Assembly: GCA_964016885.1 (NCBI GenBank)
Contig: OZ024746.1
Coordinates: 43,028,001-43,092,000, forward strand
Length of the DNA: 64,000 nucleotides
Source of the DNA: Eledone cirrhosa
Lineage: Eukaryota
Direction of reading: 5' to 3'
The notes beneath the pieces were generated by a model. It searched no databases. It was not told the origin of the DNA and saw only the letters and a program-made list of their open reading frames with translations. Below, in pieces: positions 6,950 to 64,000 of this stretch. Position numbers and translations under genes: made by a program. The first letter of the stretch is position 1, and each line of letters starts with the position of its first letter.

Positions 6950-7142
6950 GGTGGTGGATTGGCAGTATCGGTAGAGGGTCGAACGCCATGCTTTGACGCA
7001 TAGAGTTACGGCCCTTGCCATTCTGAGTTCAAATCCCGCCGAGGTTAACTTTGCCTTTCATCCTTACGGGGTCGATAAAATAAAGTACCAGTAATGCACT
7101 GGAATAATTGCTGGCCTTGTGCCAAAAGTAGAAACAATTATT
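6950..7142 (+). mobile_element. SINE-A, full length (subtype 2)
   Basis: Same A/B boxes and core as 2211-2399. Confidence 0.92.
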
Positions 7143-7189
7143 TGACAAGTACCAAGCAGGGTTCCAATTGGTGAAGAAAATAAAACTTT

Positions 7190-9211: not shown

Positions 9212-11545
9212 GGAAAGAGATGGAATGAGACATATAGGAAGGTGTGGAGAAGAAAGGTCTGGAAGCTAAAAGACCTTTCACTAAAATTCAAATTTAGGAA
9301 AGCCCTTCAAGATGTTTATGACGAAAAAGAAGACGATTTAGAGACGTATGACATAGATAATAACTGGAAGTGCTTACGTGACAACTTGCTGAAGGCTACT
9401 GATGAAACCTGTGGCTGGAGCAGAGCTCCAACCAGACAGAGAGTGACCTGGTGGTGGAACAGCAGTGTAGATAAGGCTATTAGAGACAAAAGACTAGCAT
9501 GGAAGGCTTGGAAAAAAGGGTGGGAGTAGGGAAGAATATACAGCCACTAAGAGAGAAGCTAGACGTCGGGTGTACTTAGCACGCAGGGAGGCAGAGAGTA
9601 GGAGGTTTGCCAATGTTCTGCGACGGGAAGATCAGAGGCGTGCGGTGTTCCACATTGCAAGGCAGTGTGTCAATGCAAATCAGGATGTTGTTGGTGATAA
9701 ATGTGTCCGGGATGATGCCGGTGTACTTAGTGTCACGAATGACCAGAAAAAGGAGGCCTGGAAATGTCATTATGAGAGACTGATGAATGGGAGAGAGAGA
9801 AATTACCCTTGGTAGATCCGACAGAGGGACCAGCTATTGAGATTGACGAATATAGGGTCCAAGAGGCGATTAGGGAAATGAAAAATGGTAAGGCGGCCGG
9901 ACCATCGGGAATAGTTGCTAAGATGCTGAAGGCATCAGGGGACGTAGGCACTAAACTGGTTGCACGCATAATCAATCAGGCTATATATGGTGGTGTCATA
10001 CCCAAAGACTGGTGCAGCAGTATTCTCATAAATTGCTACAAAGGTAAAGGGGATGCTTTGGAGAGGAGCAATTATAGGGGTATAAAACTGATAGATCAGG
10101 TTATGAAAGTGGCAGAAAGGATTTTAGCACAACTAATTAGAGAAAGGGTCAAACTAGATGAGATGCAGTTTGGTTTTGTGCCTGGGAAGAGTACAACAGA
10201 TGCCCTCTTCTTGGTGAGACAAATGCAAGAGAGGTTCTTAGAGAAGAATAAGCCACTATACTTAGCCTTTGTTGACCTAGAGAAGGCCTTTGATAGGGTA
10301 CCCCGATCTGTCATCTGGTGGTCCCTAAGGAAGCTGGGTGTTGAGGAATGGCTTGTAAGGACAGTGCAAACTTTGTACAGAGGTACTCTCAGTAAAGTCA
10401 GGGTAGGAATGGAGTTTAGTGAGGAATTCCAGATACAAGTAGGAGTACATCAGGGTTCGGTCCTCAGCCCGCTCTTGTTCATTATAGTCCTCCAAGCCAT
10501 AACAGAGGAGTTTAAGACTGGCTGTCCATGGGAACTTTTCTATGCTGACGATCTGGCTCTTATGGCAGAATCAGTAGAGGAGCTAGAGAATAAATTCCGG
10601 CTATGGAAACAGCAGTTGGAAGCAAGAGGACTGAGAGTAAATCTAGCTAAGACAAAAGTGTTGATGAGTAGAAAAGAGGACAAAACCCTGATTCCATCAG
10701 GGAAATGGCCATGTTCGATATGCAGAAAAGGAACTGGCATAAATTCTATAAAATGCACACAATGTAGGTCCTGGGTACACAAGAGATGTAGCAGGATAGC
10801 AGGCAAACTAACAGGTAGGGAGAAATATGTATGCAGTAGATGTACAGGGAAATTAGACAGTAGAAGTCGCACTGATAGACACATTTTTCAAATGCGAGAG
10901 GGCGCTATAGAAGTGGTGGATAGCTTCCGGTACCTAGGAGATCAGATTAGCATGGGAGGAGGGTGTTCCGAGGCCATAGTATCTAGAATAAGGACGGGTT
11001 GGAAGAAGTTTAGGGAGCTGCTTCCTCTGTTGACGAAGAAGGGTTTCTCCCTGCGTACGAAAGGCCGGTTGTATGATGCCTGTGTGAGGAGCGCGATGCT
11101 GCATGGTAGTGAGACATGGGCAGCAACCGCAGAAGATATGCGACGGCTGGAGAGAAATGAGGCAAGCATGCTCCGTTGGATGTGCAGTGTAAATGTGCGT
11201 GAACGACCCAGCATGAATGTGTTGAGAGAGAAACTGTGTCTGAGAGGGATAGAATGTAGTGTACGGGAGAGGAGACTGAGGTGGTATGGACATGTGATGC
11301 GCATGGAGGATGACCGATGGGTGAAGAAGTGCCAGGAAATGCCAGTTGAAGGAAGACGTGGTAGAGGTAGACCACGAAAAACATGGGCGGAGGTGGTGAG
11401 AACAGACCTCAGATCATTGAAGCTCACGGTGGAGATGACGAGGGACCGTGACGAGTGGAGAGATGCTGTGCTGAATAAGACCCGTCCCACCCTTGCAAGC
11501 AGGGAAAAGCGGACGTAAAATGATGATGATGATGATGATGATGAT
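9212..11545 (+). mobile_element. RTE-clade LINE (family RTE-a), 5'-truncated, lacks endonuclease, (TGA)n tail
   Basis: Linker peptides (TWWWNSSV, AWKCHYERLMN) lie in ORFs 9242-9529 and 9570-9815, joined to the RT ORF by two compensating frameshifts (about 9520 and 9790). Ends in cccgtcc...ggacgtaaaa(tga)n and is embedded in (TA)n on both sides. Confidence 0.95.
9809..11518 (+). CDS. Non-LTR reverse transcriptase (RTE clade) with internal PHD-like finger; remnant of a longer ORF
   Basis: Motifs KAAGPSG, NYRGIKL, QFGF, FVDLEKAFDRVPR, GVHQGSVLSPLLF, YADD (10541-10552), FRYLG, RRLRWYGHVMRM, GRPRKTW. The start is not a true initiation codon. Confidence 0.93.
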   Translation: MVDPTEGPAIEIDEYRVQEAIREMKNGKAAGPSGIVAKMLKASGDVGTKLVARIINQAIYGGVIPKDWCSSILINCYKGKGDALERSNYRGIKLIDQVMKVAERILAQLIRERVKLDEMQFGFVPGKSTTDALFLVRQMQERFLEKNKPLYLAFVDLEKAFDRVPRSVIWWSLRKLGVEEWLVRTVQTLYRGTLSKVRVGMEFSEEFQIQVGVHQGSVLSPLLFIIVLQAITEEFKTGCPWELFYADDLALMAESVEELENKFRLWKQQLEARGLRVNLAKTKVLMSRKEDKTLIPSGKWPCSICRKGTGINSIKCTQCRSWVHKRCSRIAGKLTGREKYVCSRCTGKLDSRSRTDRHIFQMREGAIEVVDSFRYLGDQISMGGGCSEAIVSRIRTGWKKFRELLPLLTKKGFSLRTKGRLYDACVRSAMLHGSETWAATAEDMRRLERNEASMLRWMCSVNVRERPSMNVLREKLCLRGIECSVRERRLRWYGHVMRMEDDRWVKKCQEMPVEGRRGRGRPRKTWAEVVRTDLRSLKLTVEMTRDRDEWRDAVLNKTRPTLASREKRT

Positions 11546-11780
11546 ATACATATATATATATATATATATACATATTGTTATACTTGGGGAGGGTCATATT
11601 ATTGTAATAATATTGCCAGAAATAATAACGGAACACACAGTTTGGTTGGTTTTCGCTTCTGTATCTTTTATATCTCCATAGTTAGTTTATTCGGTCATCA
11701 ATGGCCGTTTTCTACAGCTGAGAAAACTGGAGCAATGTATATATATATATATATGAATATATATATATACATATATATGT

Positions 11781-12125
11781 GGAAGCACATGGCTTAGTGG
11801 TTAGAGCATTGGCCTTGCAATCGAAAGGTTGTGAGTTCAATTCTCAGACCGGGTGATGTGTTGTTTCCTTGAGCAAGACACTTTATTTCACATTGCTCCA
11901 GTTTACTCAGCTGTAGAAATGAGATGATAGGGACTGGGGTCCCTATCAGTCCACTGCAAAGTGGTCGTGGAGGTGCCACGGCAAAAAAGCACCCAGCACT
12001 CACTGTAAATGAGGTTGGTGTTAGGAAGGGCATCCAACTGTAGAAATCAAGCCAGAATCAGTTCCCGTCCCACCCTTGCAAGCAGGGAAAAGTGGACATA
12101 AAATGAAATCATGATGAATGATGAT
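11781..12125 (+). mobile_element. SINE-B: tRNA head + CORE-like domain + RTE-derived body + RTE-a tail
   Basis: A box tggcttagtgg, B box gagttcaattc, CORE-like ccttgagcaagacact...cagtttactcagctgtagaaatg. The last about 40 nt nearly match LINE 11481-11523. Confidence 0.92.
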
Positions 12126-21859: not shown

Positions 21860-22760
21860 ATTTGAATAGGACTGCATGGGGTAGACACAGGTTCTGTAAA
21901 GTTTATTGAAGGCAACCCATCGAAGAGAGCAATCCCTTTAAATTAAAACCGACACAGGGTAGAGAAGTTTCTTCAATCTTGTCGAGAAACCTTTCTACTG
22001 GTGGTGGTATGAGGACATACATCCTATCTACACTGTAAAGTGGTTGGTCATAAAAAAGGCATCAAGGCAATAAAACCTCACCCAAAATAAGATTCCACAG
22101 CATATAAGATTCACACTAAATACAAGATTAACACTAGAGGTGTGGCTAATTAAATTGTGAATGAGAACCCCTCAATCACCATTAAGCAATTGCACAGCCA
22201 CCTTCCTTTTCATGCATAGCCAAATTAATATTTTCAGCTAACACATTTCAGGTCTGCCCTTCTAAATGTGGACAAACAGAAATGTAGATCCAGGGAAATT
22301 GTTGGAATGCTCAAAAGGAGACATGTGGATGTGTGCTGTGTAGAAAGGGTGTGCTGTAGTGGTGCCCTAGCAAGACTACTGACAGTTGAACAGTATAAAT
22401 GTAAGCTTTTCTGGATAGGAAAGGGCGACGAGGTAGGGGAAGTAGGCATTCTACTGGCTGAGGATAGATAGATAAGGATAGATAAGGTAATTGAGATAGT
22501 TAGAGCCAGTGACAGATTTATCAAGTTCAGGCAATAGAATGACAAGTATCACTTGTTATGCACCACAAGAAGGACTAAGTAAAAACCAAAAGGACTATTT
22601 CTCTGAGGAACACCTACCAAAAACCTCAGTAACAAATGACAGATACTTCATCTTCCTAGCTGGTAATTTTAATGCACATGTTGGACATCACCAGAAAGGC
22701 AACACTGGAGAAGATTGGTTATGGCTCAAGAAATGACAAGGAAGCAAGATTCCTAGGTAA
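21860..22760 (+). mobile_element. RTE LINE 5' fragment: 5' UTR plus degenerate APE endonuclease
   Basis: LLNV..SREIVGMLKRRHVDVCCVE, GVGIL-like, CYAPQEGL and AGNFNAHVG are RTE endonuclease motifs. Upstream ggcaacccatc...ttaaaacc resembles RTE 5' UTR. Confidence 0.8.
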
Positions 22761-23502
22761 TATCATATTATTACCTCCCTTATATCTGACAAGATCTTGT
22801 ATATAAAACAACATTTTGCCATCTTGGTTTAGTCTGAAGGTAACTGAACTAGCAGATATAAAATATTCATGTTCTATGCTGGTTGAAGTTTAAAACCTTA
22901 GGTAGAGATCTTATTCAAATTATTCAAATAATATTCAATTTCCACCTACCAGATTACACTTACAAGACATTGGTAAACCCAAAGTTATGGCAGTGGACAC
23001 TTACATAAGAGGTATAGAACCTGAAACATTTGACTGCAAACTTCTTAAATCAACAACCATGCTTGTGCCAATTTAACCATTAGCTATTACTATAAAGAAT
23101 GAAAAATTAATTTCTGTATGTAAATATTAAATTCTTCTGCTACAATAATAGTTACTGATGTAATTATTTTTGAACAATATACAAAATTGTTATTTGCTTC
23201 CAATTAAAGTCTTTTGTATAGAAATTTTAGTTACAATTCATATCATGTCCCTTTTCCAAATAATGAGTTTTCTTAAAATTCCCGACATGAATAAAAAAAC
23301 ATTGTGTTATCTGCACAATAATGAATAAAATTAAACTGAAAGGAAGCTTTTGTGATAGTGTTAATGATGAAGAATGTAGATGACCCAATTTCCTTTTTAA
23401 AAAATTGAATGGAATTGAGAAGACAACATTTTGCAATCTGCAATAAACATTGAAATATATATTGATATGAATATGAACATGTATGCACGCACACACACAC
23501 AT

Positions 23503-23869
23503 ATCATCATTTCATTTTACGTCCACTTTTCCCTGCTTGCAAGGGTGGGACGGGAATTGATTCTGGCTTGATTTCTACAGCTGGATGCCCTTCCTAACAC
23601 CAACCTCATTTACAGTGAGTGCTGGGTGCTTTTTTTTTTTCCATGGTACCTACACGTCCACTTTACAGTGTGTGCTGGGTGCTTTTTTGCCGTGGCACCT
23701 CCATGACCACTTTGCAGTGGAATGATAGGGACCCCAGTCCCTATCATCTCATTTCTACAGTTGAGTAAACTGGAGCAATGTGAAATAAAGTGTCTTGCTC
23801 AAGGAAACAACACATCACCCAGTCTGAGAATTGAACTCACAACCTTTCGATTGCAAGGCCAATGCTCTA
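23503..23869 (-). mobile_element. SINE-B with RTE-a tail and an extra internal unit of about 50 bp
   Basis: Colinear with 11781-12125. Confidence 0.92.
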
Positions 23870-23915: not shown

Positions 23916-24346
23916 CTGGCGCTAAGCAATAATACAGATGACCCACCTTGCCTATGTTCAAAGCAAAACCTACAGTCAGTAGGCACCTCTTAACCAAATA
24001 TATACTCCATCCCACTATCCCTACTCCACCCACCCCCACCAACACCACCCTTTCTCTTTAAAGTTATGTTGGTACCACAACATCCAGTCCAAAATAAATG
24101 AGGTTGTGTAGGTGTCACGTCAAAAAAACACAGTCCACGCTGTAATGAGCGCATGTAGGTAACACGGTAAAAACCGCCCAGTCCACACTGTAAACGTGGT
24201 TGGTGTTAGGAAGTGCATCCAGCTGTAGAAAACCTGCCAGACAGTCCTATACGAGTGAGACATGGTCACTCAACCAATCTTGCCTCAAGTGGGACAATTC
24301 CCATCTAAACCCATGCTAGCGTGGAAGATAAACGTTAAACAATGAT
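23916..24346 (+). mobile_element. RTE-b LINE 3' end (last codons plus 3' UTR)
   Basis: Colinear with the reverse complement of 31220-31740 (cagtcagtaggcacctct, aaagttatgttgg, aggaagtgcatccagctgtagaaaac, cccatgctagcgtggaa). Confidence 0.85.
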
Positions 24347-29350: not shown

Positions 29351-30726
29351 TTAATATAACTCAGAGAGAGAAGGTATGAGAAAAAAATTGTATCCAAAAT
29401 GCTGACAATGATTTTATACATTTTCATGTTTTCTTTGCTTCTAAAGACATAATTTAAGTACCTTAAGAACCATTTTTTAAATTTCACTACAGTTAACCTA
29501 TTGTCCCACACAGTGTTAATCATTTAATAAAAAAATTTCATGATGGAAAATGTGTTTAATGAATATATTTTCCTCAGATTTTCCAAGTAATATTGGATGG
29601 TTTCTTAATTACATTGCCCCATCTGTTATTACAATTATTCAAAGATTTGAGCAGAAATTTGAAGTAAATAAATAAAAAGAAACAAAATATATAAAGAAAC
29701 TGAAGTTCAAATCATTTATATTATTAACAATCTCTTTCTTAAGATACTGATACAATTTTTATGTTAACTGTTTTCCAGATTTCTATTAAGAATAATTAAA
29801 AAGGTAATCTACAATTTGCAAAAAGTAGTCTTACTGGATATAATTGGATGATGCAATAATATTTATAGTAACCATATAAGTTAGATTGTTATAATTTTCT
29901 TATTTACAGATTATTTGCATAAATCTAGTGCTATTTGAATCAAGAAAAGAAATAGTGGAAATGCTTGTTTAATAATGGTTGTGAGTAAATTAATTTCTTT
30001 GAAAAATAGTAGAGGCTTTCATTCAAGCTTTCTCTGGATTTATTGCATGATAAAAGCAAACATCTATTTTACACAATAGCACAACAAAAGAAACTTTGGA
30101 ACTAAATAATTAAATAAGACAACTAATATTGTGGTAAGAATATAATAATGTTCCACAAAATGTACTTAACTGTAAAGAGATGATTTTAGAAATATTTCGA
30201 TTTGATTAAATTGAAATTCATACAAGAATAATCAATTATGGGTTTTACTTTTAGCTTTATAAGTGTTATTTTATTTGATTAATGAATTTATTTACTTCTG
30301 ATTCAATAAAATTACTGTGTATATCAATGTGTAGAACTTGAGATTTTATACAATGTGAGTTTTATTCATTTCAAGTATACTGAGGGGAAATGCAATTTTG
30401 TTGTGAAATATATTTATAAACACTTCTGCTTTATTAAATCTCAGTTTAACAATCATATTTTCGAAAATGATTTTAAGCAAGAAAATTACAAGATATGAAA
30501 TATATTGTTTGCCTTATATGTTATGCTAAATTAAATTTTGTTTGAAAATTTCATTCATGAAATACTAATACAATATATTTTTACTAAGCAACTGTACGAT
30601 AGTAATTGGTCATTATGTATAGGCTCACTTTGTTGACTGCTTATCAACACCAAATGCGTTTCTGTTGTAATAAGTGAATAATCATATTTTTGGTCTCTCT
30701 GTTTATCTGATTTTACTTTCTCTCTC

Positions 30727-30784: not shown

Positions 30785-31118
30785 GAGGCACATGCACATG
30801 GGTTAATGGTTAGAGCCTTGCAATCGAAATGTTGTTAGTTCAATTCTCAGACTGAGTGATGTGTTGTTTACTTGAGCAAGACACTTTATTTCACATTGCT
30901 CCAGTTTACTCAGCTGTAGAAATGAGATGATAGGACTGGCGTCCATATCATTCCACTGCAAAGTGGTCATGGAGGTGCCACGGCAAAAAAGCACCCAGCA
31001 CCCACTGTAAATGAGGTTGGTGTTAGGAAGGGCATCCAGCTGTAGAAATCAAGCCAGAATCAGTTCCCGTCCCACCCTTGCAAGTAGGGAAAAGCGGACG
31101 TAAAATGAGGGTGATGAT
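30784..31118 (+). mobile_element. SINE-B with RTE-a tail
   Basis: Colinear with 11781-12125. Confidence 0.92.
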
Positions 31119-31199
31119 ATATATATATATTATATATTTCTGTTGTAATAAGGGAATAATCATATTTTTGGTCTCTGTTTATCTGACTTTACTATATAT

Positions 31200-32442
31200 C
31201 ATCATCATCATCATTATCATCAGGTTTAGCGTCCGTGTTCCACGCTTACATGGGTTTGGACGGGGCTTTTCCCACTTGAGGCAAGAGTGGTTGTCTTGCT
31301 CGCATAGGACTGTCTGGCGGGTTTTCTACAGTTGGATGCCCTTCCTAACACCAACCACATTTACAGTGTGGGGCTGGGAGGTTTTTACCGTGTTGCCTAC
31401 ACGGCCACATTACAGCGTGGACTGTCTGGCGGGTTTTCTACAGCTGGATGCCCTTCCTAACACCAACCACATTTACAGTGTGGGGCTGGGAGGTTTTTAC
31501 CGTGTTGCCTACACGGCCACATTTACAGCGTGGACTGTGTGTTTTTTGTCGTGACACCTACACGATCTCATTTGTTTCGGCCTGGATGTTGTGGGACCAA
31601 CATAACTTTACATTGAAAGGGGCGGTGTGGAGGTGGTGGGACGGGGGTGTGTTTTGATAGAGGTGCCTACTGACTGTAGTAGGTTTTTACTTTGTATTTA
31701 GGTAAGGCGGGTCTTCTCTATTACTGAGTACCGCCAAAGGTCTCGGTCCAGTGACATTGTCTTGGAGAGGTGTAAGCGTGTGAGGTCGGAATTTATCAGC
31801 TCGTCCCATGTTTTTCTGGGTCTGCCTACTCCGTGGCTACCGTCTATCTTTATTGCCCTGCACTTTGTTATACAGCTGTCGTCTTTCATGCGCATCACGT
31901 GACCGTACCAACGTAGCCTTCTCTCGAGTAAACAACATCTGATCCCTCTTATTTCTAATTTTTTCCTTAGTTCGTTTATGCTTTGCCGTTCACGTATATT
32001 ACTATTGCACATCCAGCGGAGCATGCAAGCTTCGTTCCTCTCTAGTCTGCGTATATCCTCTGCACACAATGCCCAGGTCTCACTGCCATGCAGCATTGCT
32101 GTTCGTATGCAGGCATCGTATAACCTGCCTTTCATTTTTAGGGAGAACCCTCTAGCGGCTAATAGTGGTATAAGCTCTCTGAACTTTTTCCATCCAGTTC
32201 TGACTCTAGCTACTGTACTTTCAGAGCACCCTCCCCCACTGCTGATTTTGTCACCCAGATAACGGAAGCTGTCCACTATTTCTATAGAACCCTCTGCGCA
32301 GTTGAAGGAGCTAGTATTTTGTGGGCACTTGCTGCTACTTATTGCACCAGAGCACCGGCCACATGTAAAATCTATGTTCTTAGTTAGCTTACCTGTGATC
32401 CCACTACATCTTTTATGCACCCATACTTTGCATTTGGGACAT
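31200..32442 (-). mobile_element. RTE-clade LINE (family RTE-b), 3' part, with about 480-bp 3' UTR and (TGA)n tail
   Basis: Uninterrupted frame 32442-31698 (CPKCKVWVHKRC...FRYLGD...RRLRWYGHVMRM...GRPRKTW...KTRLT*), homologous to the 9809 ORF. The N-terminal IYIY of the ORF track is (TA)n. Confidence 0.93.
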
Positions 32443-32502
<60 letters not shown>

Positions 32503-35336: not shown

Positions 35337-36955
35337 TTGCTGAAAACATCTCAATCAATGCCATTTATAAAAACCAACAGTGATAGTTGTTGATGTCTAC
35401 CATAACCAATACAATCTGTTGTAGAGTAGTTTGATGAATGCCAGTGCTATATATATACCACATTTAAAATAATATATAGCCTAGTAGAAAACCTACAACC
35501 ATAGACAAATTGATATAAAAATGGTGGTTGGTAATAGGAAAGGCATTCACCTATAGAAACCTTGCCAAACAAAAGGTCAGAAGGACCTTTCAGCTCTGTC
35601 AAAGTCATGACAACCCCACCTAATGATGCTGCCATGGTAAATGCACTTATTATAGTGCAGGATCATATTCATTCTGGTTATATATCAACCTTTTGTGTAT
35701 CAATAAAACTATATATGCATTTATCATATATTTATTACATTATCATGTCTATCTCAGCTTTTAGAATAAGTACCCCATATACCTGAATGTTGTATGAAGT
35801 GACTAAAAGGCTTGTCATCTGCAAGGTTATTCAGCTGTAAAACATTGCCTCAAATAGTCCAGGCCATCACAGGAATGGTAAATTGGATATGATCATGATG
35901 ATGATGATGTCACCATTGTTGCTACTACTGCTGCTGAAATATACAGTCTTGCCATTCTGATAACAAATTACAGTATGATTCCTTGAGTTTTATTTCACAG
36001 CAAAACTATATATCTTTTAACCATGTAATCTATATATTGATGAGCTATTTCTTCTCCTCACCACTAAAGGTCTGTAAAGATTGTTGGTTATATCTCCCAA
36101 GTTCCATTCCACAACAAAACTATATATATTTTAAACATATATGCTTTGATATTCTGATTTTAAAAACATTCAGGTTATGTTAATGTATTAGTAATTTATT
36201 TTTTTATTGTGCTGACACAATAAGAATCTCTATCCCCAGTGATCTGAAAATTTTAGTATAAACACATCTACATCAAGGAGATCTAGCTTTACTTTTTATG
36301 AGTGATAAAAATATATCGAATGTAAATGAGGACATTGCAGAACTAGAATATAGAAAGAAAAGAGAGTATACACCACTAGCTGAAACTGATACAGACACCT
36401 TCTCATAAATCTCAGCTAATACAGTTTTATATTTTCTTTTTTTTTAATATATATCCCATGTACCTGAAGCCACACAGCATATAATGTTCACTCATGAATC
36501 CATTCTTTTCAAATCTATCAGATGCTGCTCAAAAGGAAAGTGATTAAAACTGAATAAAAAATGGCTATCTTACCAGCATTTTCTAAGTTGAAATTTATTG
36601 CTAAATAGTCTAATCAGTGACTATTATCTGTAAAGTCATTTTATCCTTAAATCATTATTGTATTCAATTTACTAAAGGTTAATCAAGAACATTTACATAT
36701 TTTATCATATTTTCTTTAATTGGTATTTATTTTTAGTCAAAGTCAAATTCATCCTTATCTCATTTTTTTAGTTACTTTAGAGGATTTTATTGCAAAATAA
36801 ATCAATTATATGATAAGAATATTAACCATTAAACATTAATTTATGATATATGATAGTAATTTTTTTGTATAGACACGCACGGAATATATGTACAAGTTCA
36901 TATATATCTTCCTTATTTTACATCCACATATGTATCCACACACACACACACAGAG

Positions 36956-39599: not shown

Positions 39600-40013
39600 T
39601 CATCATCATCATCCTCATCATCATCATCACCATTTTACATCCATTCTTCCATGCTAGCATGGGTTAAACGGGTTGTCCTGTTGTGGGCAATGCCAGGTCA
39701 GGTGACCATGTCTTGCTCATATGGAACTGATTTTGGCTTGATTTCTACAGCTGGATGCCCTTCCTAACACCAACCTCATTTTGCAGTGAGTACTGGGTGC
39801 TTTTTTACTGTGGTGCCTACATGACCACTTTACAGTGGGAGGGGGTGGGGGCATGCTGTTTATATGCTTCAGCTTTGGCTTGTACCCGTGGGAAGTCAGG
39901 TCTTCTGTATTACTGCATAACACCAGAGGTCTCAGTCCAGTGTCATCGCCTTTGAGAGGCGCAATTGGGCAAGGTCAGCTTTTATTACCTCATCCCAGGT
40001 CTACTTGGGTCTC
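39600..40013 (-). mobile_element. RTE-b-related LINE 3' end (ORF end plus 3' UTR shared with SINE-B)
   Basis: Minus strand reads RPK*TWDEVIKADLAQLRLSKAMTLD*DLWCYAVIQKT, then the aggaagggcatccagctgtagaaatcaagcc module and the ccatgctagcatggaagaatggatgtaaaatg(gtga/tga)n tail. Confidence 0.85.
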
Positions 40014-41852: not shown

Positions 41853-41950
41853 TTATTATGATTAAATTCTATTTTATACAAACCCCCCTGTACCAGCTTT
41901 AATGTCACCTTAATGTGAGCCCTGTATGGCTAATAAAGAAATTATTATTA

Positions 41951-42140
41951 TTGGCAGTATCGGTAGAGGGTTGGACGCCATGCTTTCTAGCATAGTTACG
42001 TCCCTTTACAGTCTGAATTCAAATCCCGCTGAGGTTAACTTTGCCTTTCATCCTTACGGCTTCGATAAAATAAAGTACCAGTAATGTGCTGGGTAATTGC
42101 TGGCCTTGTGCCTAAAAGTAGAAACAATTATTATTATTAC
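41951..42140 (+). mobile_element. SINE-A with (ATT)n tail
   Basis: Colinear with the other copies. Confidence 0.9.
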
Positions 42141-47962: not shown

Positions 47963-47995
<33 letters not shown>

Positions 47996-48388
47996 GGAGG
48001 CACATGGCTTAGTGGTTAGAGCATTAGGCTTGCAATCGAAAGGTTGTGAGTTCAATTCTCAGACTGGGTGATGTGTTATTTCCTTGAGCAAGAGACTTTA
48101 TTTTCACATTGCTCCAGTTTACTCAGCTGTAGAAATGAGATGATAGGACTGGGGTCCCTATCATTACACTGCAAAGTGGTCGTGGAGGTGCCACGGCAAA
48201 AAAAGCAACCAGCGGTCACTGTAAGTGAGGTTGGTGTTAGGAAGGGCATCTAGCTGTAGAAATCAAGCCAGAATCAGTTCCCGTATGAGCAAGACAAGGT
48301 CAGCCGACCGGACTCTGCCCACAACAGGACAACCCATCTAACCTATGCTAGCGTGGAAGAACGGACGTAAAATGGTGATGATGATGAT
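47996..48388 (+). mobile_element. SINE-B with the longer RTE-b-type tail
   Basis: Same head and body up to gaatcagttcccgt, then atgagcaagacaaggtca...cccacaacaggacaaccc...gctagcgtggaagaacggacgtaaaatg, as in LINE 39600-40013. Confidence 0.92.
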
Positions 48389-48402
48389 ATATATATATAT
48401 AC

Positions 48403-48600
48403 ACCGCAGTAAAGTGGTTGTGTAGGCGACACACCAAAAAGCACCCAGCAAAAACTGTAAATGTGGTTGGCGTTAGGAAGGACATACAGCTGTAGAAACC
48501 AACCCCAAATCAGCCCCGTGTAAGTGTGATTCTCTCCCTAAGAGTCAGCCTGTCCTACCCATGTTAGCGTGGAAGATGGGCATTAAACAATGTTGGTGAT
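48403..48600 (+). mobile_element. Headless copy of the RTE-derived body+tail module (other relics near 35520-35580, 35810-35910, 53950-54060, 55440-55700; tail only at 24490-24530)
   Basis: gtaaagtggttgtgtaggcgacac...ggttggcgttaggaaggacatacagctgtagaaa...cccatgttagcgtggaa. Confidence 0.75.
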
Positions 48601-49790: not shown

Positions 49791-50066
49791 ATTGTAACAC
49801 TAAAATGCAAATTAATATATTTGGGATAAATTATTATGCATTATTTGTGAGAAAATTATAATCCATATATTTTACATCTCAAATTCACATTTACCATCTC
49901 TTATATAAGGCATGTTATGATGAGAAAATATATGATGATGAAGAACATATAATGATAAAGTGTGTATACTAACTACAGCTCAATTTCACTCAGAATATAT
50001 ATAATAATGTTAGAATGCTTTTACTATTAAGAGATTAACAAATATAATATAATTAAATTTCATGTA

Positions 50067-50211
50067 GCATAGAGTTACGGCCCTTTATTATCTGAGTTCA
50101 AATCCCGCCGAGGTTAACTTTGCCTTTCATCCTTATGGGGTCGATAAAATAAAGTACCAGTAATGCACTTGTTAATTGCTGGCCATTGTGCCAAAAGTAG
50201 AAACAATTATT
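50067..50211 (+). mobile_element. SINE-A, 5'-truncated (subtype 2)
   Basis: Starts at gcatagagttacggccc, ends gtagaaacaattat. Confidence 0.88.
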
Positions 50212-50989
50212 TATGAAATAAAAGAGCAATTAATCCAGCAGTTACAATATCATATGAAGAGTGCCCATAATTTCTGAGCAGTTATTTTTGTGGGATAAGT
50301 GTAATTTACCAATTGTGTAAGTATACATGCATTTTGGTGTATGTTTGTTTAGAAAGTAAAGAGAATGAGAGGCGTGCACACATACACATGCTGAATTACA
50401 TAAGAGGGCCCATAAGTAAATACCTCAGCTTCATTTCTTTTAATGCAAACTGATTGATTACTATAATAAAAAGAGGCAATCAATTTTTCAGAATTGATTA
50501 GCATGTCTTTTTAACTACAAAAATTGTAATAATGAAATAGAGCTGTAAATCTAAATGTAAATACTTTGACACAAATTTAAGTTTATATTATATTTAAGAT
50601 GAACCTATAGCATCTTAAAAGCTTTTAGATAGGTGCCACAATCAAGATATTGACCTATGTCACTCAGACAGCTAACAGCTTAAAAGGCTTCGATTTCACT
50701 CCACCTGGACTGATATAAATTTCAACTGTCAACATAAGGCTGAAAGACTTTTCTCTGTTGTCAAATTCAGCTAACCAATTACTTCTAAATGAAGCTATAT
50801 ATCAATATCAAATATTGGTTGTGGATACATATATTAAAGTTAAATATCTCCACTAAGTAAATTATAATTTTAGAGCAATTATTATAACTAAGCATGTTGA
50901 TTTAGTGAGGCTCTTTATCTGTTGGAAATTATAGTAAAGCACATATGTCTTCAAGACATTTTGTCAAATCAGTTTCCCATCGGTGAGCC

Positions 50990-53500: not shown

Positions 53501-55721
53501 ACTAGATAATTAAAAAATTGTTGTAACTAAATTTATTTATTTATTTCAAGCTTCAATGGAAACTATAATTTACTGTGGGGCAATAGTTATGAGGAAAAGT
53601 AGAAGTGGTACAAAGAAAGTGAGCTTAGTTAATCACTTGAGAGGAAATATCTAAAAATAGTTTAACATAGAGAAAAAATTTAAACATAATATGATGAAAT
53701 TAGTATTTTTTTGTGTTTTTTTTTTCGGTCTCCAACATATGACATCCATGATTCCATTCTGTAGATGGACAATTTTTTTTATTTTTTGTTGTGTAGTCAG
53801 GAGTGGAGGGGGAGGAGCAGAGCCCAGAGAACCAAGTCAGCCACAGTCCTATTAGAATTTAGAATGCAAAGAGCCAGAGCAAAACCATAAGTAATTGTGT
53901 CAAATGCTCTCACAATTCCAATAATCCATTACATTATATAAAGTTTGAGTTGACATCAGGAAGGGCATCCAACCACAAGGAAATTGCCTTAAAATGTATC
54001 ATCTAACTCAGTATGATACATGTTAAAAGCAGATGTAAAAGCAATGGTGAAGATAATGATATGTTGGGTCAGTTAAACCAATAACTAAGAGAAATTACTT
54101 TGTAAATTTTCTTCAAGAAAAAGTAGTTAAGTGGATGCTAACATGCTTAATGAAATGAACCAAACAGTTTTAATTAATTAAGATTACATATTTAGTAAGC
54201 AGAAAAAGATATTAGGTTAATGATTAACACGGGTCAAGAAGACCAAGGGAAACAACTCTGAAATTTAAATTAATTTAAATTTGAATAAAAGGCATGGAGT
54301 GTGTAACTAATCTTTTTCAAGTACAGTGGTAATTCTAAACATGTTTCGATGTTATTACACATTATTAGCAATTGCCACACCCCTGAATAACTAAGAGACT
54401 TAAGGTTTCTCACTGAATAAACACTGGTGAATGTGACCTATTAAAATAATGGTTAGGGGAATTACACAGGTACACCTTCTGTATGAAAAACAAATAGTTA
54501 AGAAAATAATATATTCAATCTAGTGCAGTTGTTGGGATTGTTGCTGTGAATGACGATCATCTCTTAATATCAATCTTATTCTTGTACCAGAAGCAATATG
54601 ATGCCACACCAAATTTGTGTATGCTGAAAATGAACGACTGAAATAATTTGGAGATTTTAAGACTAGTCCCTTGTGTGAGGAACAAGTGGTTTGATAGTAG
54701 TTTACATCTGGAAGATATCTAAAGGAATAGCATGAGGTTTTGGCATTCAAATAGAGATATGTACATAGAGACATGCCTAGAATAATTTAAGAATTATTTG
54801 AAAATAAATTTCTTCTTCATTATTAACTCAATATTCATTAATTTCAAGGCTTTTGACACATTCTGAAACATACATATGCATGCATGGTACTGTTATATTT
54901 TTTGTTGTTTGAAAGATTGCATAGAGCAAGAAATCTGGAGAGAGAGTAACGCATACAAGCATTCCAAATATATGTTAAACAAGGATGATGATGATCACAT
55001 ACATACACACAGACGCATACAAATACACGTATGCACACATACATACAAACACACAATAACAATACGTTCCTTACCTAACCCATTTAGTCTCCCTCTACTT
55101 AATTTGTTTAACCCATTCCTCTCTACCCCAGGCCAGCCCAGACATTGTGCTTCTCCTTTCCACTTCCCCACATCCCTGATTCACTTTTCTTGTCCAACAT
55201 ATGCCAACATGGAAAGCCATGCAGGCACCACAATATATAGGCAGACACATCACATTCTTCATAGTCACCATCATGATATGGTGCTTCCAGCATGTAGCCA
55301 CTCCACCATGTCTCATTTCCTAGCCTGGCCAAGGACACAATGAGTATCTTAGTTTTTGTAATGAGATAGCGCTGTTGCCACAAGAAAATGCACCTAGCCT
55401 ACTCTTTAGGCAAAGCTGCTATCTTAATAAAAAGTAGGTTGGTAGTGGCAGTGCCATGACAAAAAGCACCCAATCTACCTTGTAAGGATATAGACCTGGA
55501 GTCATGATAAAATCTTCTAAATATATGCTTTAAAGTGGTTTGTATTAGGAAGGGCCAACATGGAAAGCCATGCCGCCATAGTACCAAGCCAAAAATTGAG
55601 TGTACAAGCAAAATGTGGATATTTAATCAGCCGAGGTTCATTTCTTGATAACCCATCTAATCCTTGCATCTATGGAACATAGATACTAAACAATGATCAT
55701 GAAAAGCATGTATGTGTATAT

Positions 55722-56433: not shown

Positions 56434-57660
56434 AGTTTTGGGTATAAATTGTATATTGTTTGTATTTTCTGCATAAGTTATTGTACTTAAAATTTATTTT
56501 GTTGCTACCAAAACACAAGCTACTTGATAGTGTCAGAACAGGTGATCTATAATAATACAGAAATGTTTTTCCCTATCCTAATGGTTTAAACAAAAATAGC
56601 AGTGGAGATACATAAGAATCTCATGTTATTTAGATCAGATTGAAAAAGTGCTGTTGATAGAGCTTAATGGAAACATTTCATTTATGATGAAATCTCAATA
56701 GAAATACTGCTGCAATCCTATATTCAGAAAAGTGCATAGAAATGCAGCTTATAAATGTACTAAAGAGTATAGGCATAAGTTGACAGTTGACAAATACTAA
56801 TGTTTTCTATAAATATTGTTATCCATTTTAGAACATAGGTTCATAAACTAAAATTATAGTTAATTTTAGATCTACTTAAGTATATAACCAAATCAAAAGT
56901 GACAGAAATATTATTTGAGAAAACAAGCATGGTGTTATGAAAGCTTCTGTATGAATATATATTTTTAGTTTTGGCACATAGCCACACATTCTATAGGGAG
57001 GGAACATTTGATTATATGTACCCCAGTGTCTGACTAGTATTTATTTTATTGATCCAGAGCATATTATGTAGTTGCGATGTATTATATTATACATATGTAG
57101 GTTGAAGATTCTTCCTGTAATTACTTAGCTGAAAATATAAATCTGTGACAGAGTGGCCACCACATAAAAGGATTATGTGGATAATTGATAAGCTGACAAT
57201 TAGAAACCTGTTTAACTATTATTCATTTACCTGTTTGAGACCATGTATGGAGGCCATGTTGAGGCACCACCATTAAGAAGAATGAGTTAGAAATATTAGT
57301 CAGTTATAAAAAACTACAAGAGTAAAAGAAATTTAGATAAAGCATTATATTCATTCTTAATAAGTCTGAAATACCACAGAGTTAAAATAGAACCAACATA
57401 TGGAATATGCCATAATAATTTCTTTTTCTTATGAAAGACCCAAACATGGCATGAAACCTCTTAGAGCAAGAAACTATGAAGAAGGAGAAATTAGGACGAA
57501 AGAAATTAATTTAAATTAACATAAAAGCGTTCAAGAAAACAGGAAAACACTGAAAGGGTAGAGAGTTTGAAAATGTTGTAGCTTGAAGAAAAAAGCTACG
57601 GGCAACAGTATATATTTATTGCTTGGTGAGCTGAGCCAATATGATGTTGGTTATATTGTA

Positions 57661-58088
57661 ATAATTGTTTCTACTTTTAGCACAAGGCTAGCAAATTACC
57701 CAGTACATTACTGGTACTTATGTTTTATCGACCCCCATAAGGATGAAAGGCAAAGTTAACATGGGCAGGATTTGAACTCAGACCATAAAGGGACGTAACT
57801 CTGCTTTATCTAAATATGGTTATATTGTAATAATTGTTCCGTAACTCTAGGCGTCAAAGCATGGCGTCCGACCCTCTACTACCGATACTGCCAATCCACC
57901 TAATAATTGTTTCTACTTTAGGCACAAGGCCAGTAATTACCCAGTGTATTACTGGTACTTTATTTTATCGACCCCGTAAGGATGAAATGCAAAGTTAACC
58001 TCGGCGGGATTTGAACTCAGATCGTAAAGGGACGTAACTATGCTAGAAAGCATGGCGTCCGACACTCTACCGATACTGCCAATCCACC
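57661..58088 (-). mobile_element. Cluster of SINE-A copies (truncated 57661-57803, head fragment 57840-57900, full 57901-58088)
   Basis: Direct sequence comparison with 2211-2399. Confidence 0.9.
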
Positions 58089-58984
58089 TAATAATGGTGA
58101 TGAGATAAATGAGTTATCACCTGGTATCAACCTTCCAACATATTGGCGAAATGTGAATTTTAAAAATGATATTACAATATTTATGATGAAGTGGTGGGTA
58201 GAGGGTAGATAAGTAAATATGTAGTTTTAGATAAAATAACTTATTAAAATAGTCTAATCTACATCATGGCAGAATCTAAATGGAAATGAGATAAGAAAGG
58301 TATGCAATTTATTGATGGAAAAAACATGTACACACACACACTCTTTCTCATACACATACACACACTCTCTTCCTCACACATATACACACTCTCTCTTTCT
58401 CACACATATACACACAAGCAATTGATTACTTAGATTTAACATATTTATACAAGTAAATATCATGAAAATTGTTGCAGACATAATACTAGACATTTCACCA
58501 TCTCTAGGTCAGTGCTTTACATTTCTGAGTCCAAAATGCTGTTGATTTTCATCCATCAAACATTACACTGATGAAATAGGAAGATAATAACTAAAATTCA
58601 GTTTTAGTTTCATATGAAATTTATTAGAAATTGTTTACAATATAGATTTAATATTTCTTGTAGTTTTTTTTCTTAGATAGAGAGTCAATTTCTGGAGAGT
58701 TTATTTTTGTTTTAGTTCTGTTTTTAAACACTGTTGCTTCATTCTTAATCTTTGGTAATTGAATTATTATTTTATTCAGTACTGAAAGATTAAACTTACA
58801 TACACAGATAATATATCATCATCAACACCATTATCATCATCAATATTTTTTACACCTATCCTCCATACTGGCATAGGTTATACAAACCAAGTCAGTACTT
58901 AATCAGAGCTACTGACATACCAAATGGGTGAGGAGACTATGTATTACTTACATAGGTTCCAGTTTTGGTATGGTAAGAATGTAT

Positions 58985-61554: not shown

Positions 61555-61722
61555 ATAATTGTTTCTACAATTATCCCAGTGCATTACTGGTACTTTATTT
61601 TATTGACCCCATAAAGATGAAAGGCAAAGTTAACCTCGGCGGGATTTGAACTCAGAATGGCAAAGGCTGTAACTCTATATGTCAAGCATGGCGTCCGACC
61701 CTCTATTGATACTGCCAATCCA
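61555..61722 (-). mobile_element. SINE-A (subtype 2) with a small deletion near the tail
   Basis: Colinear, but lacks the ttaggcacaaggccag segment. Confidence 0.88.
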
Positions 61723-62924: not shown

Positions 62925-63109
62925 GGTGGATTGGCAGTATCGGTAGAGGGTCGGATGCCATGCTTTCCAGCATAGTTACCTCCCTTTACGATCTGAGTTC
63001 AAATCCCGCCGAGGTTGACTTTGCCTTTCATCCTTACGTGGTCGATAAAATAAAGTACCAGTAACGCACTGGGTAATTGCTGGCCTTGTGCCTAAAGTAG
63101 AAACAATTA
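62925..63109 (+). mobile_element. SINE-A, full length with TSD
   Basis: Direct repeat attaataacctg at 62914-62925 and 63106-63117. Confidence 0.92.
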
Positions 63110-64000
63110 ATAACCTGATTAGAAATAATTTTATATTGTGGAAAAGTCATTAGATTAATATTATTTTAATCACTTTGGCTATAACAGAAAACAACTCTAG
63201 ATATTTTGAAATAATTTTTAGATGTCAATGAAGCAATAACTTCATCATTTTTGCTTGCCAAAGTACTGAAGAGGGGGATCACTAAATAGACGTACAATAT
63301 TGAGAAATTAAATGGCAAATGTTATCTGGTAAAACAAACATCATTTGGTGCCATATAGTCTATTTTTATTTGAAAATATTTTACTATAAAAAATGAAGAT
63401 TTTACTCACAGAAATTTGAACTACAATTAAAGACATAGAAACCCACTTAACCAAGAATGTAAGCAGATGGATGTGTAAATAACAAAAGTGAGTTTTAAGT
63501 TAGAATTACAAGGAAGCAAAAGAGAATATACAATAGTTTAAGTCTTGGAATAAAAGAAAAAATATATATTTAAGGCTGAAATTAGGAGAAGGTAAAGAAA
63601 AAGAAGTGACCCATGCAAGAAATACTTTCAAGAAAGAGAAATAAAGATAATGTTATTTTTTTATCTGAATATGTTCTGAATAAAATGTTTATAAATATAC
63701 CAAGATAGTTCTGTTTTAGAATACAGTCTATGATTTCAGCAATTAAACGAGATATGCTATTCCAATTATGGTAACAATGCTACAAACCTGTCAACATGGG
63801 TGTAATCCAGCACTCAATAGTTTTTGCCATTCTGTTTAGGTTTACTTGACTTAATATTAGATAAATAAATACAACTAAAATAATAGCCTTGAGTATTACT
63901 AATGCATATCATACAGTTCTGTATGTCCCATTCGGGCAATCAAATATAAACACATTATATAAGTAGAGCACATGAGAAGATTTTAAGGATTAGCATGGTT

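Follow-up and report, generated by a model that had tools for sequence, protein, structure and literature searches.

A 5′-UTR segment of RTE retrotransposons lies behind the open reading frame in an autonomous RTE lineage and in the 3′ half of a local SINE

We found that an autonomous lineage of RTE retrotransposons carries a conserved module, recognizable as a segment of RTE 5′ UTRs, in its 3′ UTR, and that in every region seen an element bears the module at one end or the other and never at both. We consider it probable that this layout goes back to one ancient relocation of the segment and that the module is a position-independent signal, predicted to act in the RNA. The window, that is, the whole stretch of 64,000 nucleotides analyzed, is C6:43028001-43092000 of a 3.0-Gb animal genome, which its repeats suggest to be octopus-like. 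The initial annotation of this window had placed the module after the RT stop codon in three LINE copies, at 31200 (minus strand), 23916 (plus strand) and 39600 (minus strand). We confirmed this for all three, and the first has two full copies of the module. The LINE features on which the analysis rests are as follows.

31200..32445, minus strand: RTE-b copy, 5′-truncated, from a very young family, with a (TA)n run at the 5′ junction
31698..32445, minus strand: C-terminal part of the single ORF of this copy, with the end of the PHD finger and the RT C-terminus; stop codon at 31698-31700
31566..31697, minus strand: C-rich start of the RTE-b 3′ UTR, with no detectable relic of a first tail
31517..31565, minus strand: extra upstream subunit of the module, ~48 bp (HMM match to model positions 6-54, E=9e-9)
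31427..31520, minus strand: module copy 1, a ~48-bp subunit (predicted H-type pseudoknot) and a 44-nt conserved core
31315..31408, minus strand: module copy 2, a 112-bp tandem duplication fixed in RTE-b and missing from RTE-b-old and RTE-c
31200..31264, minus strand: RTE 3′ tail and (TGA)n microsatellite of the RTE-b copy
23917..24330, plus strand: truncated copy of the older subfamily RTE-b-old, 95.8% identical to its consensus, with a single module at 24153-24239
39601..40012, minus strand: truncated copy of subfamily RTE-c, 93.8% identical to its consensus, with a single module at 39734-39828 and a final ~220 nt collinear with the SINE's 3′ half
9212..11545, plus strand: 5′-truncated copy of the young sister family RTE-a, with a short 3′ end and an ORF that extends into the tail
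48405-48590, 35519-35640 and 55440-55569: older module-plus-tail fragments, truncated and similar to families d and e

The organization of RTE-b was constant across the genome. The RT end was 100% identical over 711 nt in 40 of 40 scored genome matches (scored out of 987 candidates), and two modules were present in all 30 fetched loci, whose 3′ UTR was 98–99% identical to that of the window copy. This 3′ UTR, ~500 nt long, consists of the C-rich stretch, the 48-bp subunit, two modules with a period of 112 bp, a middle segment, one tail and (TGA)n. The microsatellite forms the 3′ end of the copies, which are 5′-truncated to a variable extent, and each of 14 RTE-b copies chosen by their 5′ end ran from the ORF to the same 3′ UTR and tail. 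Contigs from two other public runs also covered the double module, one of them spanning the stop codon. For RTE-c, the core lay ~160 nt past the stop codon in 26 of 29 loci. Since each subfamily has a fixed junction between ORF and module, the copies cannot be explained as independent nested insertions, the alternative that had been named as fatal to the initial proposal. The three copies in the window had also been called independent; they are indeed separate insertions, but they belong to three subfamilies that share the codon position of the stop and form one old lineage, and they are not separate captures.

The full RTE-b ORF (locus L120) comprises 1111 codons and encodes an endonuclease (PF03372/PF14529), an RT (PF00078) and a PHD finger (PF00628); intact ORFs were found upstream of the RTE-b 3′ cassette. 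We provisionally assign RTE-b to the RTE clade on its architecture and on a motif common to hagfish RTEs, the homologues used beside its RT carrying no clade names. The usual RTE layout, with a conserved segment in the 5′ UTR and a short 3′ UTR, is found in RTE-a but not in RTE-b, in which the segment lies inside the 3′ UTR and none was seen at the 5′ end. The initial annotation described a second tail following the module. A relic of a first tail after the ORF was not detectable (p=0.37-0.89), nor did any 3′-module copy outscore shuffled sequences, and thus one tail is established. Some copies of families d and e appear tail-like after the ORF, judged by eye only.

Among the PHD-bearing RTEs studied here, one lineage, made up of RTE-a and its older relatives, combines a 5′ module with a short tail. 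In families e, d, c, b-old and b, the ORF is succeeded by a C-rich spacer, at least one module and, last, the tail. We collected 169 distinct RT ends from the fetched DNA, a sample biased by the queries used, of which 111 were followed by a 3′ module, 46 by a short tail and the other 12 by neither. These RT ends sorted by 3′ type, and the short-tail copies clustered. In a tree rooted with PHD-bearing homologues, the short-tail lineage, which includes a fragment at 22 kb of the window, had a support of 100/100; for the 3′-module families, the support was 85/76 for b, b-old, c and d, and 58/64 when e was added (66 in another tree). A single early capture of the 3′ module is the simplest reading of these trees. 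The monophyly of the 3′-module families is weak, so that two captures, or a loss in the RTE-a lineage, may have occurred instead. No family lacking both the 5′ and the 3′ module was found.

The similarity that had been noted near 22 kb, upstream of an endonuclease, held up. An HMM built from 3′-UTR modules only matched positions 21999-22069, and the top score among 20 shuffled windows used as a control was 5.5 bits. The features of this region are the following.

21860..22760, plus strand: decayed 5′ fragment of the lineage with a 5′ module and a short tail, comprising 5′ UTR and endonuclease
21999..22069, plus strand: diverged module in the ancestral place, upstream of the endonuclease (E=3.8e-7, 26.2 bits)
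21877..21950, plus strand: separate upstream 5′-UTR segment, Ceph-like by eye (E=7e-10 to the old 5′-UTR consensus)

On the placing of this fragment the initial annotation was not confirmed, as the fragment falls in the other lineage. Clearer modules precede the endonuclease in its relatives. In the longer copies of RTE-a, the module lies ~70 nt before the ATG; it sits ~1.4 kb into the shared 5′ region of ~1.6 kb, away from the 5′ end, and is preceded by a short tandem duplication and by CAA- and T-rich stretches (L163 and L176). The short tail was present in 30 of 30 RTE-a loci. Comparison of the old 5′-UTR consensus with the 3′ units gave 121 of 146 identical columns for family e and 84 of 96 for family d. 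Furthermore, the module core occurs seven times in the part of the PMC7245038 supplement covered here, namely in two hagfish RTEs, within the 5′ UTR, and in five hagfish SINEs. Judged from these sequence matches, the module is a true RTE 5′-UTR segment. A metagenome scan also recovered the exact core in short repeats of 8 contigs (L241-L248), within two differing upstream contexts. No same-strand RTE ORF was found beside the core in these 8 contigs, and they therefore did not polarise the position of the module.

The Ceph domain of cephalopod SINEs is a CORE domain joined to an RTE 5′ part (PMC5786205), and it had been brought up in connection with the module. The module string is missing from the supplement of that study (Kojima 2018, PMC5786205). 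The Ceph-like segment, matched by eye to the RTE-derived half printed for SepiaSINE, is likewise absent from the 3′ cassettes and from the local SINE. We rejected the Ceph domain as the source of the module: the Ceph-like segment is separate, lies upstream and is carried in no 3′ cassette. The likeness to the Ceph domain is that the local SINE joins a body presumed to be CORE-like to an RTE 5′-UTR piece, and that a Ceph-like segment (recognized by eye) adjoins the module in old 5′ UTRs. The difference is that the module is another segment, located downstream, and that the Ceph-like segment is not in the local SINE. RTE-a does not have the Ceph-like segment that is present in its older relatives.

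The initial annotation further proposed that the module lies at both ends of the LINE, which would give it LTR-like terminal redundancy. This was not borne out: no 3′-module element showed the module in its 5′ region, and 5′-module elements end in a short tail, as did the 4 older 5′-module copies (among 6) whose 3′ end was reached. The 5′ region of RTE-b is built of tandem 202-bp monomers with occasional ~290-bp spacers. We found no module within it in 29 correctly oriented loci, a count that leaves out the mis-oriented locus L081, and same-strand matches to the module near the 5′ end sit in flanking insertions. The longest arrays reach 108 monomers (24.7 kb) at C21:31532011-31556700 (L112, L177 and L179), and another, at C5:3510020-3520200 (L113 and L178), has 46 monomers (10.2 kb); both start at (TA)n and probably expanded after insertion. 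We traced the six longest arrays out to the 5′ junction, and all began at (TA)n, with no module. The 5′ region was likewise without a module in the 14 of 19 RTE-b-old loci reaching the ORF start, in the 4 of 5 RTE-c loci for which several hundred bases on the 5′ side were available and in the 3 of 16 copies of families d and e reaching the endonuclease. All copies of c, b-old, d and e are 5′-truncated and their far 5′ ends were unseen, so a module may yet lie farther upstream in these families.

The tandem 5′ unit of RTE-b-old (L441, L442 and L444) is ~315 bp long and unlike the 202-bp monomer of RTE-b, which indicates that the lineage has replaced its 5′ repeat. Thirteen near-identical matches to the RTE-b-old 5′ region were clustered at C18:93164-901900, in the first megabase, and this cluster is likely a segmental amplification.

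The window also holds copies of a SINE that shares the module.

47995..48390, plus strand: SINE, older form, with a 3′ half that matches the 3′ UTR of RTE-c
30785..31119, plus strand: SINE, younger form, with the module retained and the tail replaced by an RTE-a tail
11780-12120, plus strand, and 23501-23859, minus strand: further copies of the younger form

The SINE at 47995..48390 has what we take to be a tRNA-like head and a CORE-like body; ARAGORN identified no tRNA gene in the local SINE. In the younger form, which is the commoner one, the retained module is joined to the RTE-a tail at a 5-nt microhomology. Identity to the consensus was 91% for two-subunit RTE-c copies (n=23), a figure that may include subfamily differences, 96% for SINEs with the RTE-c tail (n=4) and 98% for SINEs with the RTE-a tail (n=37). 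These data support the view that the local SINE acquired its 3′ half from an RTE-c LINE and later swapped to the tail of RTE-a. Exchange between SINE and LINE had been suggested to run in both directions. Transfer from LINE to SINE is supported twice; transfer from SINE to LINE is unsupported, because the cassette predates the sampled SINE and neither a tRNA head nor a piece of CORE turned up in the LINE 3′ cassette.

The core of the module is strongly constrained. Between RTE-b and RTE-c, 42 of 44 core positions were identical (95%), compared with 44 of 63 in the middle segment (70%) and 67 of 148 fourfold-degenerate sites (45%); between RTE-b and family e, 40 of 43 core positions were identical. 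The subunit adjoining the core was identical at 23/39 to 32/41 positions, far below the 93–95% of the core itself. The middle of the 3′ UTR also exceeds silent sites, and so some of the conservation may stem from the exchange of 3′ ends among coexisting families. One RTE-c copy (L259) has no core, yet it was inserted.

In 7 of 8 family consensuses, an H-type pseudoknot could be fitted at the same position in the subunit that precedes the core; the RTE-c consensus was the one that failed. Stem 1 of the predicted pseudoknot is closed by three different base pairs across the consensuses, which amounts to compensatory changes. In a shuffle test, the score was reached by 0 of 150 shuffles for the SINE, 1 of 150 for RTE-b-old and 4 of 150 for RTE-b. 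The test was weak for four old or 5′ forms (11–16 of 150), and RTE-b retains just 3 bp of the predicted stem 2. Folding z-scores of the whole module were mostly close to zero, and the hairpin of the core itself was weak. A comparison of four loci having 5′ and 3′ modules with Rfam returned 44 matches to E=5, with no ribozyme family, such as twister, HDV-like or hammerhead, among them; all were sub-threshold and mostly to microsatellites. The 48-bp subunit was also seen to expand into minisatellites of up to ~7 kb, for example at C28:35352786-35359702 and C13:9610857-9612554.

Taking relocation as the preferred reading, we propose the following sequence of events. Hagfish RTEs suggest that the 5′ position of the module is ancestral. 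An early element would have gained a cassette composed of a 5′-UTR piece and a tail, perhaps when a bipartite element situated in its microsatellite tail was reached by template switching or by read-through. No donor of the cassette was found, and the first one may have been an extinct bipartite element or SINE. The 3′ copy would then have taken over the job of the module, which is likely to be the loading of the RNA, close to the tail, with the element's own protein or with the ribosome; with this, the 5′ copy could be lost and the 5′ end would be free to turn over. The SINE would later have copied the ready-made bipartite 3′ half from RTE-c before switching to the RTE-a tail. A wider formulation, which we offer tentatively and hold to be somewhat doubtful, is that the RTE segment repeatedly picked up by SINEs, in animals from hagfish to cephalopods, acts as an RNA loading signal irrespective of its position and is composed of a pseudoknot and a purine-loop hairpin. 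Its move from 5′ to 3′ would have uncoupled it from the promoter, freed the 5′ end for a satellite-sized array and turned a LINE 3′ UTR into a SINE body.

The main rival to this account is that the cassette is a passenger, captured with a working tail, without a job in the 3′ UTR and conserved through the swapping of 3′ ends among LINEs and SINEs. The SINE shows a tail swap, identity in the middle segment likewise exceeds that of silent sites (44/63 against 67/148), the subunits readily expand into minisatellites and one RTE-c copy does without the core, all of which agree with a passenger. Swapping of whole 3′ ends accounts less well for a core (93–95%) that stands well above both the neighbouring subunit (23/39 to 32/41) and the middle segment (70%), for the compensatory changes in the stems and for the failure to find a family without both the 5′ and the 3′ module. 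We therefore regard the passenger explanation as unlikely, while giving it more weight than any other rival. A DNA-level role, in which the core would be an enhancer-like sequence or a transcription-factor site, effective at whichever end of the element it lies, appears improbable to us. The primary sequence of the core is conserved out to hagfish RTEs and recurs in the repeats of the 8 metagenome contigs, its hairpin is weak, and the discussion in Kojima 2018 (PMC5786205) speculates likewise on conserved RTE 5′-UTR segments. Such a role is harder to reconcile with a module that is always in sense orientation and near the tail, with compensatory changes in the adjacent subunit that suggest RNA folding, and with its retention in a SINE of Pol III type.

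The proposal that the module occurs at both ends, with LTR-like redundancy and a 3′ copy firing a promoter downstream, is largely refuted for RTE-b, and we consider it very improbable in general. It gains something from the 5′-UTR origin of the module and from the extreme 5′ ends of the older subfamilies, which were unseen. Every 3′-module element examined was nevertheless without a 5′ module, the six longest 5′ arrays begin at (TA)n and not at the 3′ UTR of an upstream element, the module at 22 kb belongs to the other lineage, and the RTE-a module is close to the ATG, ~1.4 kb into the shared 5′ region. Among non-LTR elements, Drosophila HeT-A offers a precedent for a 3′-UTR promoter, with transcription that starts in the 3′ UTR and continues into the next copy downstream. 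This promoter relies on a head-to-tail arrangement; the RTE-b copies examined are scattered and begin at (TA)n. Least credible of all is that the module is, or derives from, a self-cleaving 5′ ribozyme. Twister variants have been described at the 5′ end of the RTE Perere-3 (PMC8501958, in the part considered here), and the subunit can form the predicted pseudoknot. However, no ribozyme family appeared among the 44 Rfam matches to E=5 at four loci, and cleavage in the 3′ UTR would remove the tail of a family that is in fact highly active.

The cassette of RTE-b resembles the bipartite non-autonomous RTEs and SINEs, in which a 5′-UTR piece is joined to a 3′ tail (Kojima 2018, PMC5786205; Kojima 2020, PMC7245038, in the part covered here). 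Unlike the bipartite non-autonomous RTEs, RTE-b is autonomous and very young, its ORF is intact and it is without a 5′ copy. The local SINE differs from the bipartite RTE-derived SINEs in that its 5′-UTR piece came from a LINE 3′ UTR and not from an internally deleted element. This adds a route to bipartite SINEs, in which a LINE 3′ UTR is copied and internal deletion is unnecessary. Kojima 2018 (PMC5786205) explained the retention of an internal RTE 5′-UTR piece by SINEs only through speculated transcription-factor binding. Here an autonomous lineage keeps the piece behind its ORF under strong constraint, which argues for a job independent of the transcription start. RTE-a and RTE-b share 64% protein identity, and both are very young (99–100% identical copies) and mostly flanked by (TA)n. 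These two co-active, near-intact families carry the piece at opposite ends and thus constitute a natural swap experiment.

The tandem ~200-bp 5′ units of RTE-b are reminiscent of the 5′ monomer arrays of mouse L1, as described in the portion of PMC5381506 considered; compared with those, the RTE-b monomer has 28% GC and no CpG island, and its arrays contain up to 108 monomers. Turnover of the 5′ end between subfamilies, as between RTE-b and RTE-b-old, parallels the 5′-UTR switching of Nicotiana RTEs (10.1101/2022.11.04.512097, in the part considered). RTE-2_OV of Octopus vulgaris, by the partial account we used (PMC9115989), has one ORF of ~1110 codons with an endonuclease, an RT and a zinc finger, as here. 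According to the same partial account, its microsatellite starts where the ORF ends (PMC9115989), which, compared by description, is like RTE-a and unlike RTE-b. The literature searched contained no description of an autonomous RTE that bears the segment in the 3′ UTR; the search did not extend to Repbase, Dfam or subscription papers, and a precedent may exist. The layout is unmentioned in the sections considered of the octopus and mollusc repeat papers PMC9115989, PMC13282606, PMC4758252 and PMC4824008.

Two further observations concern the window itself. A near-duplication of ~57 bp (30659-30720 and 31140-31195) brackets the younger-form SINE at 30785-31119 together with its microsatellites. 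A second abundant repeat of ~190 bp, without the module, is present in the window with 85–97% identity between copies, at the following positions.

2203-2395: copy of the ~190-bp repeat
6950-7143: copy of the ~190-bp repeat
41950-42138: copy of the ~190-bp repeat
50037-50214: copy of the ~190-bp repeat
57659-58098: copy of the ~190-bp repeat
61568-61722: copy of the ~190-bp repeat
62925-63112: copy of the ~190-bp repeat
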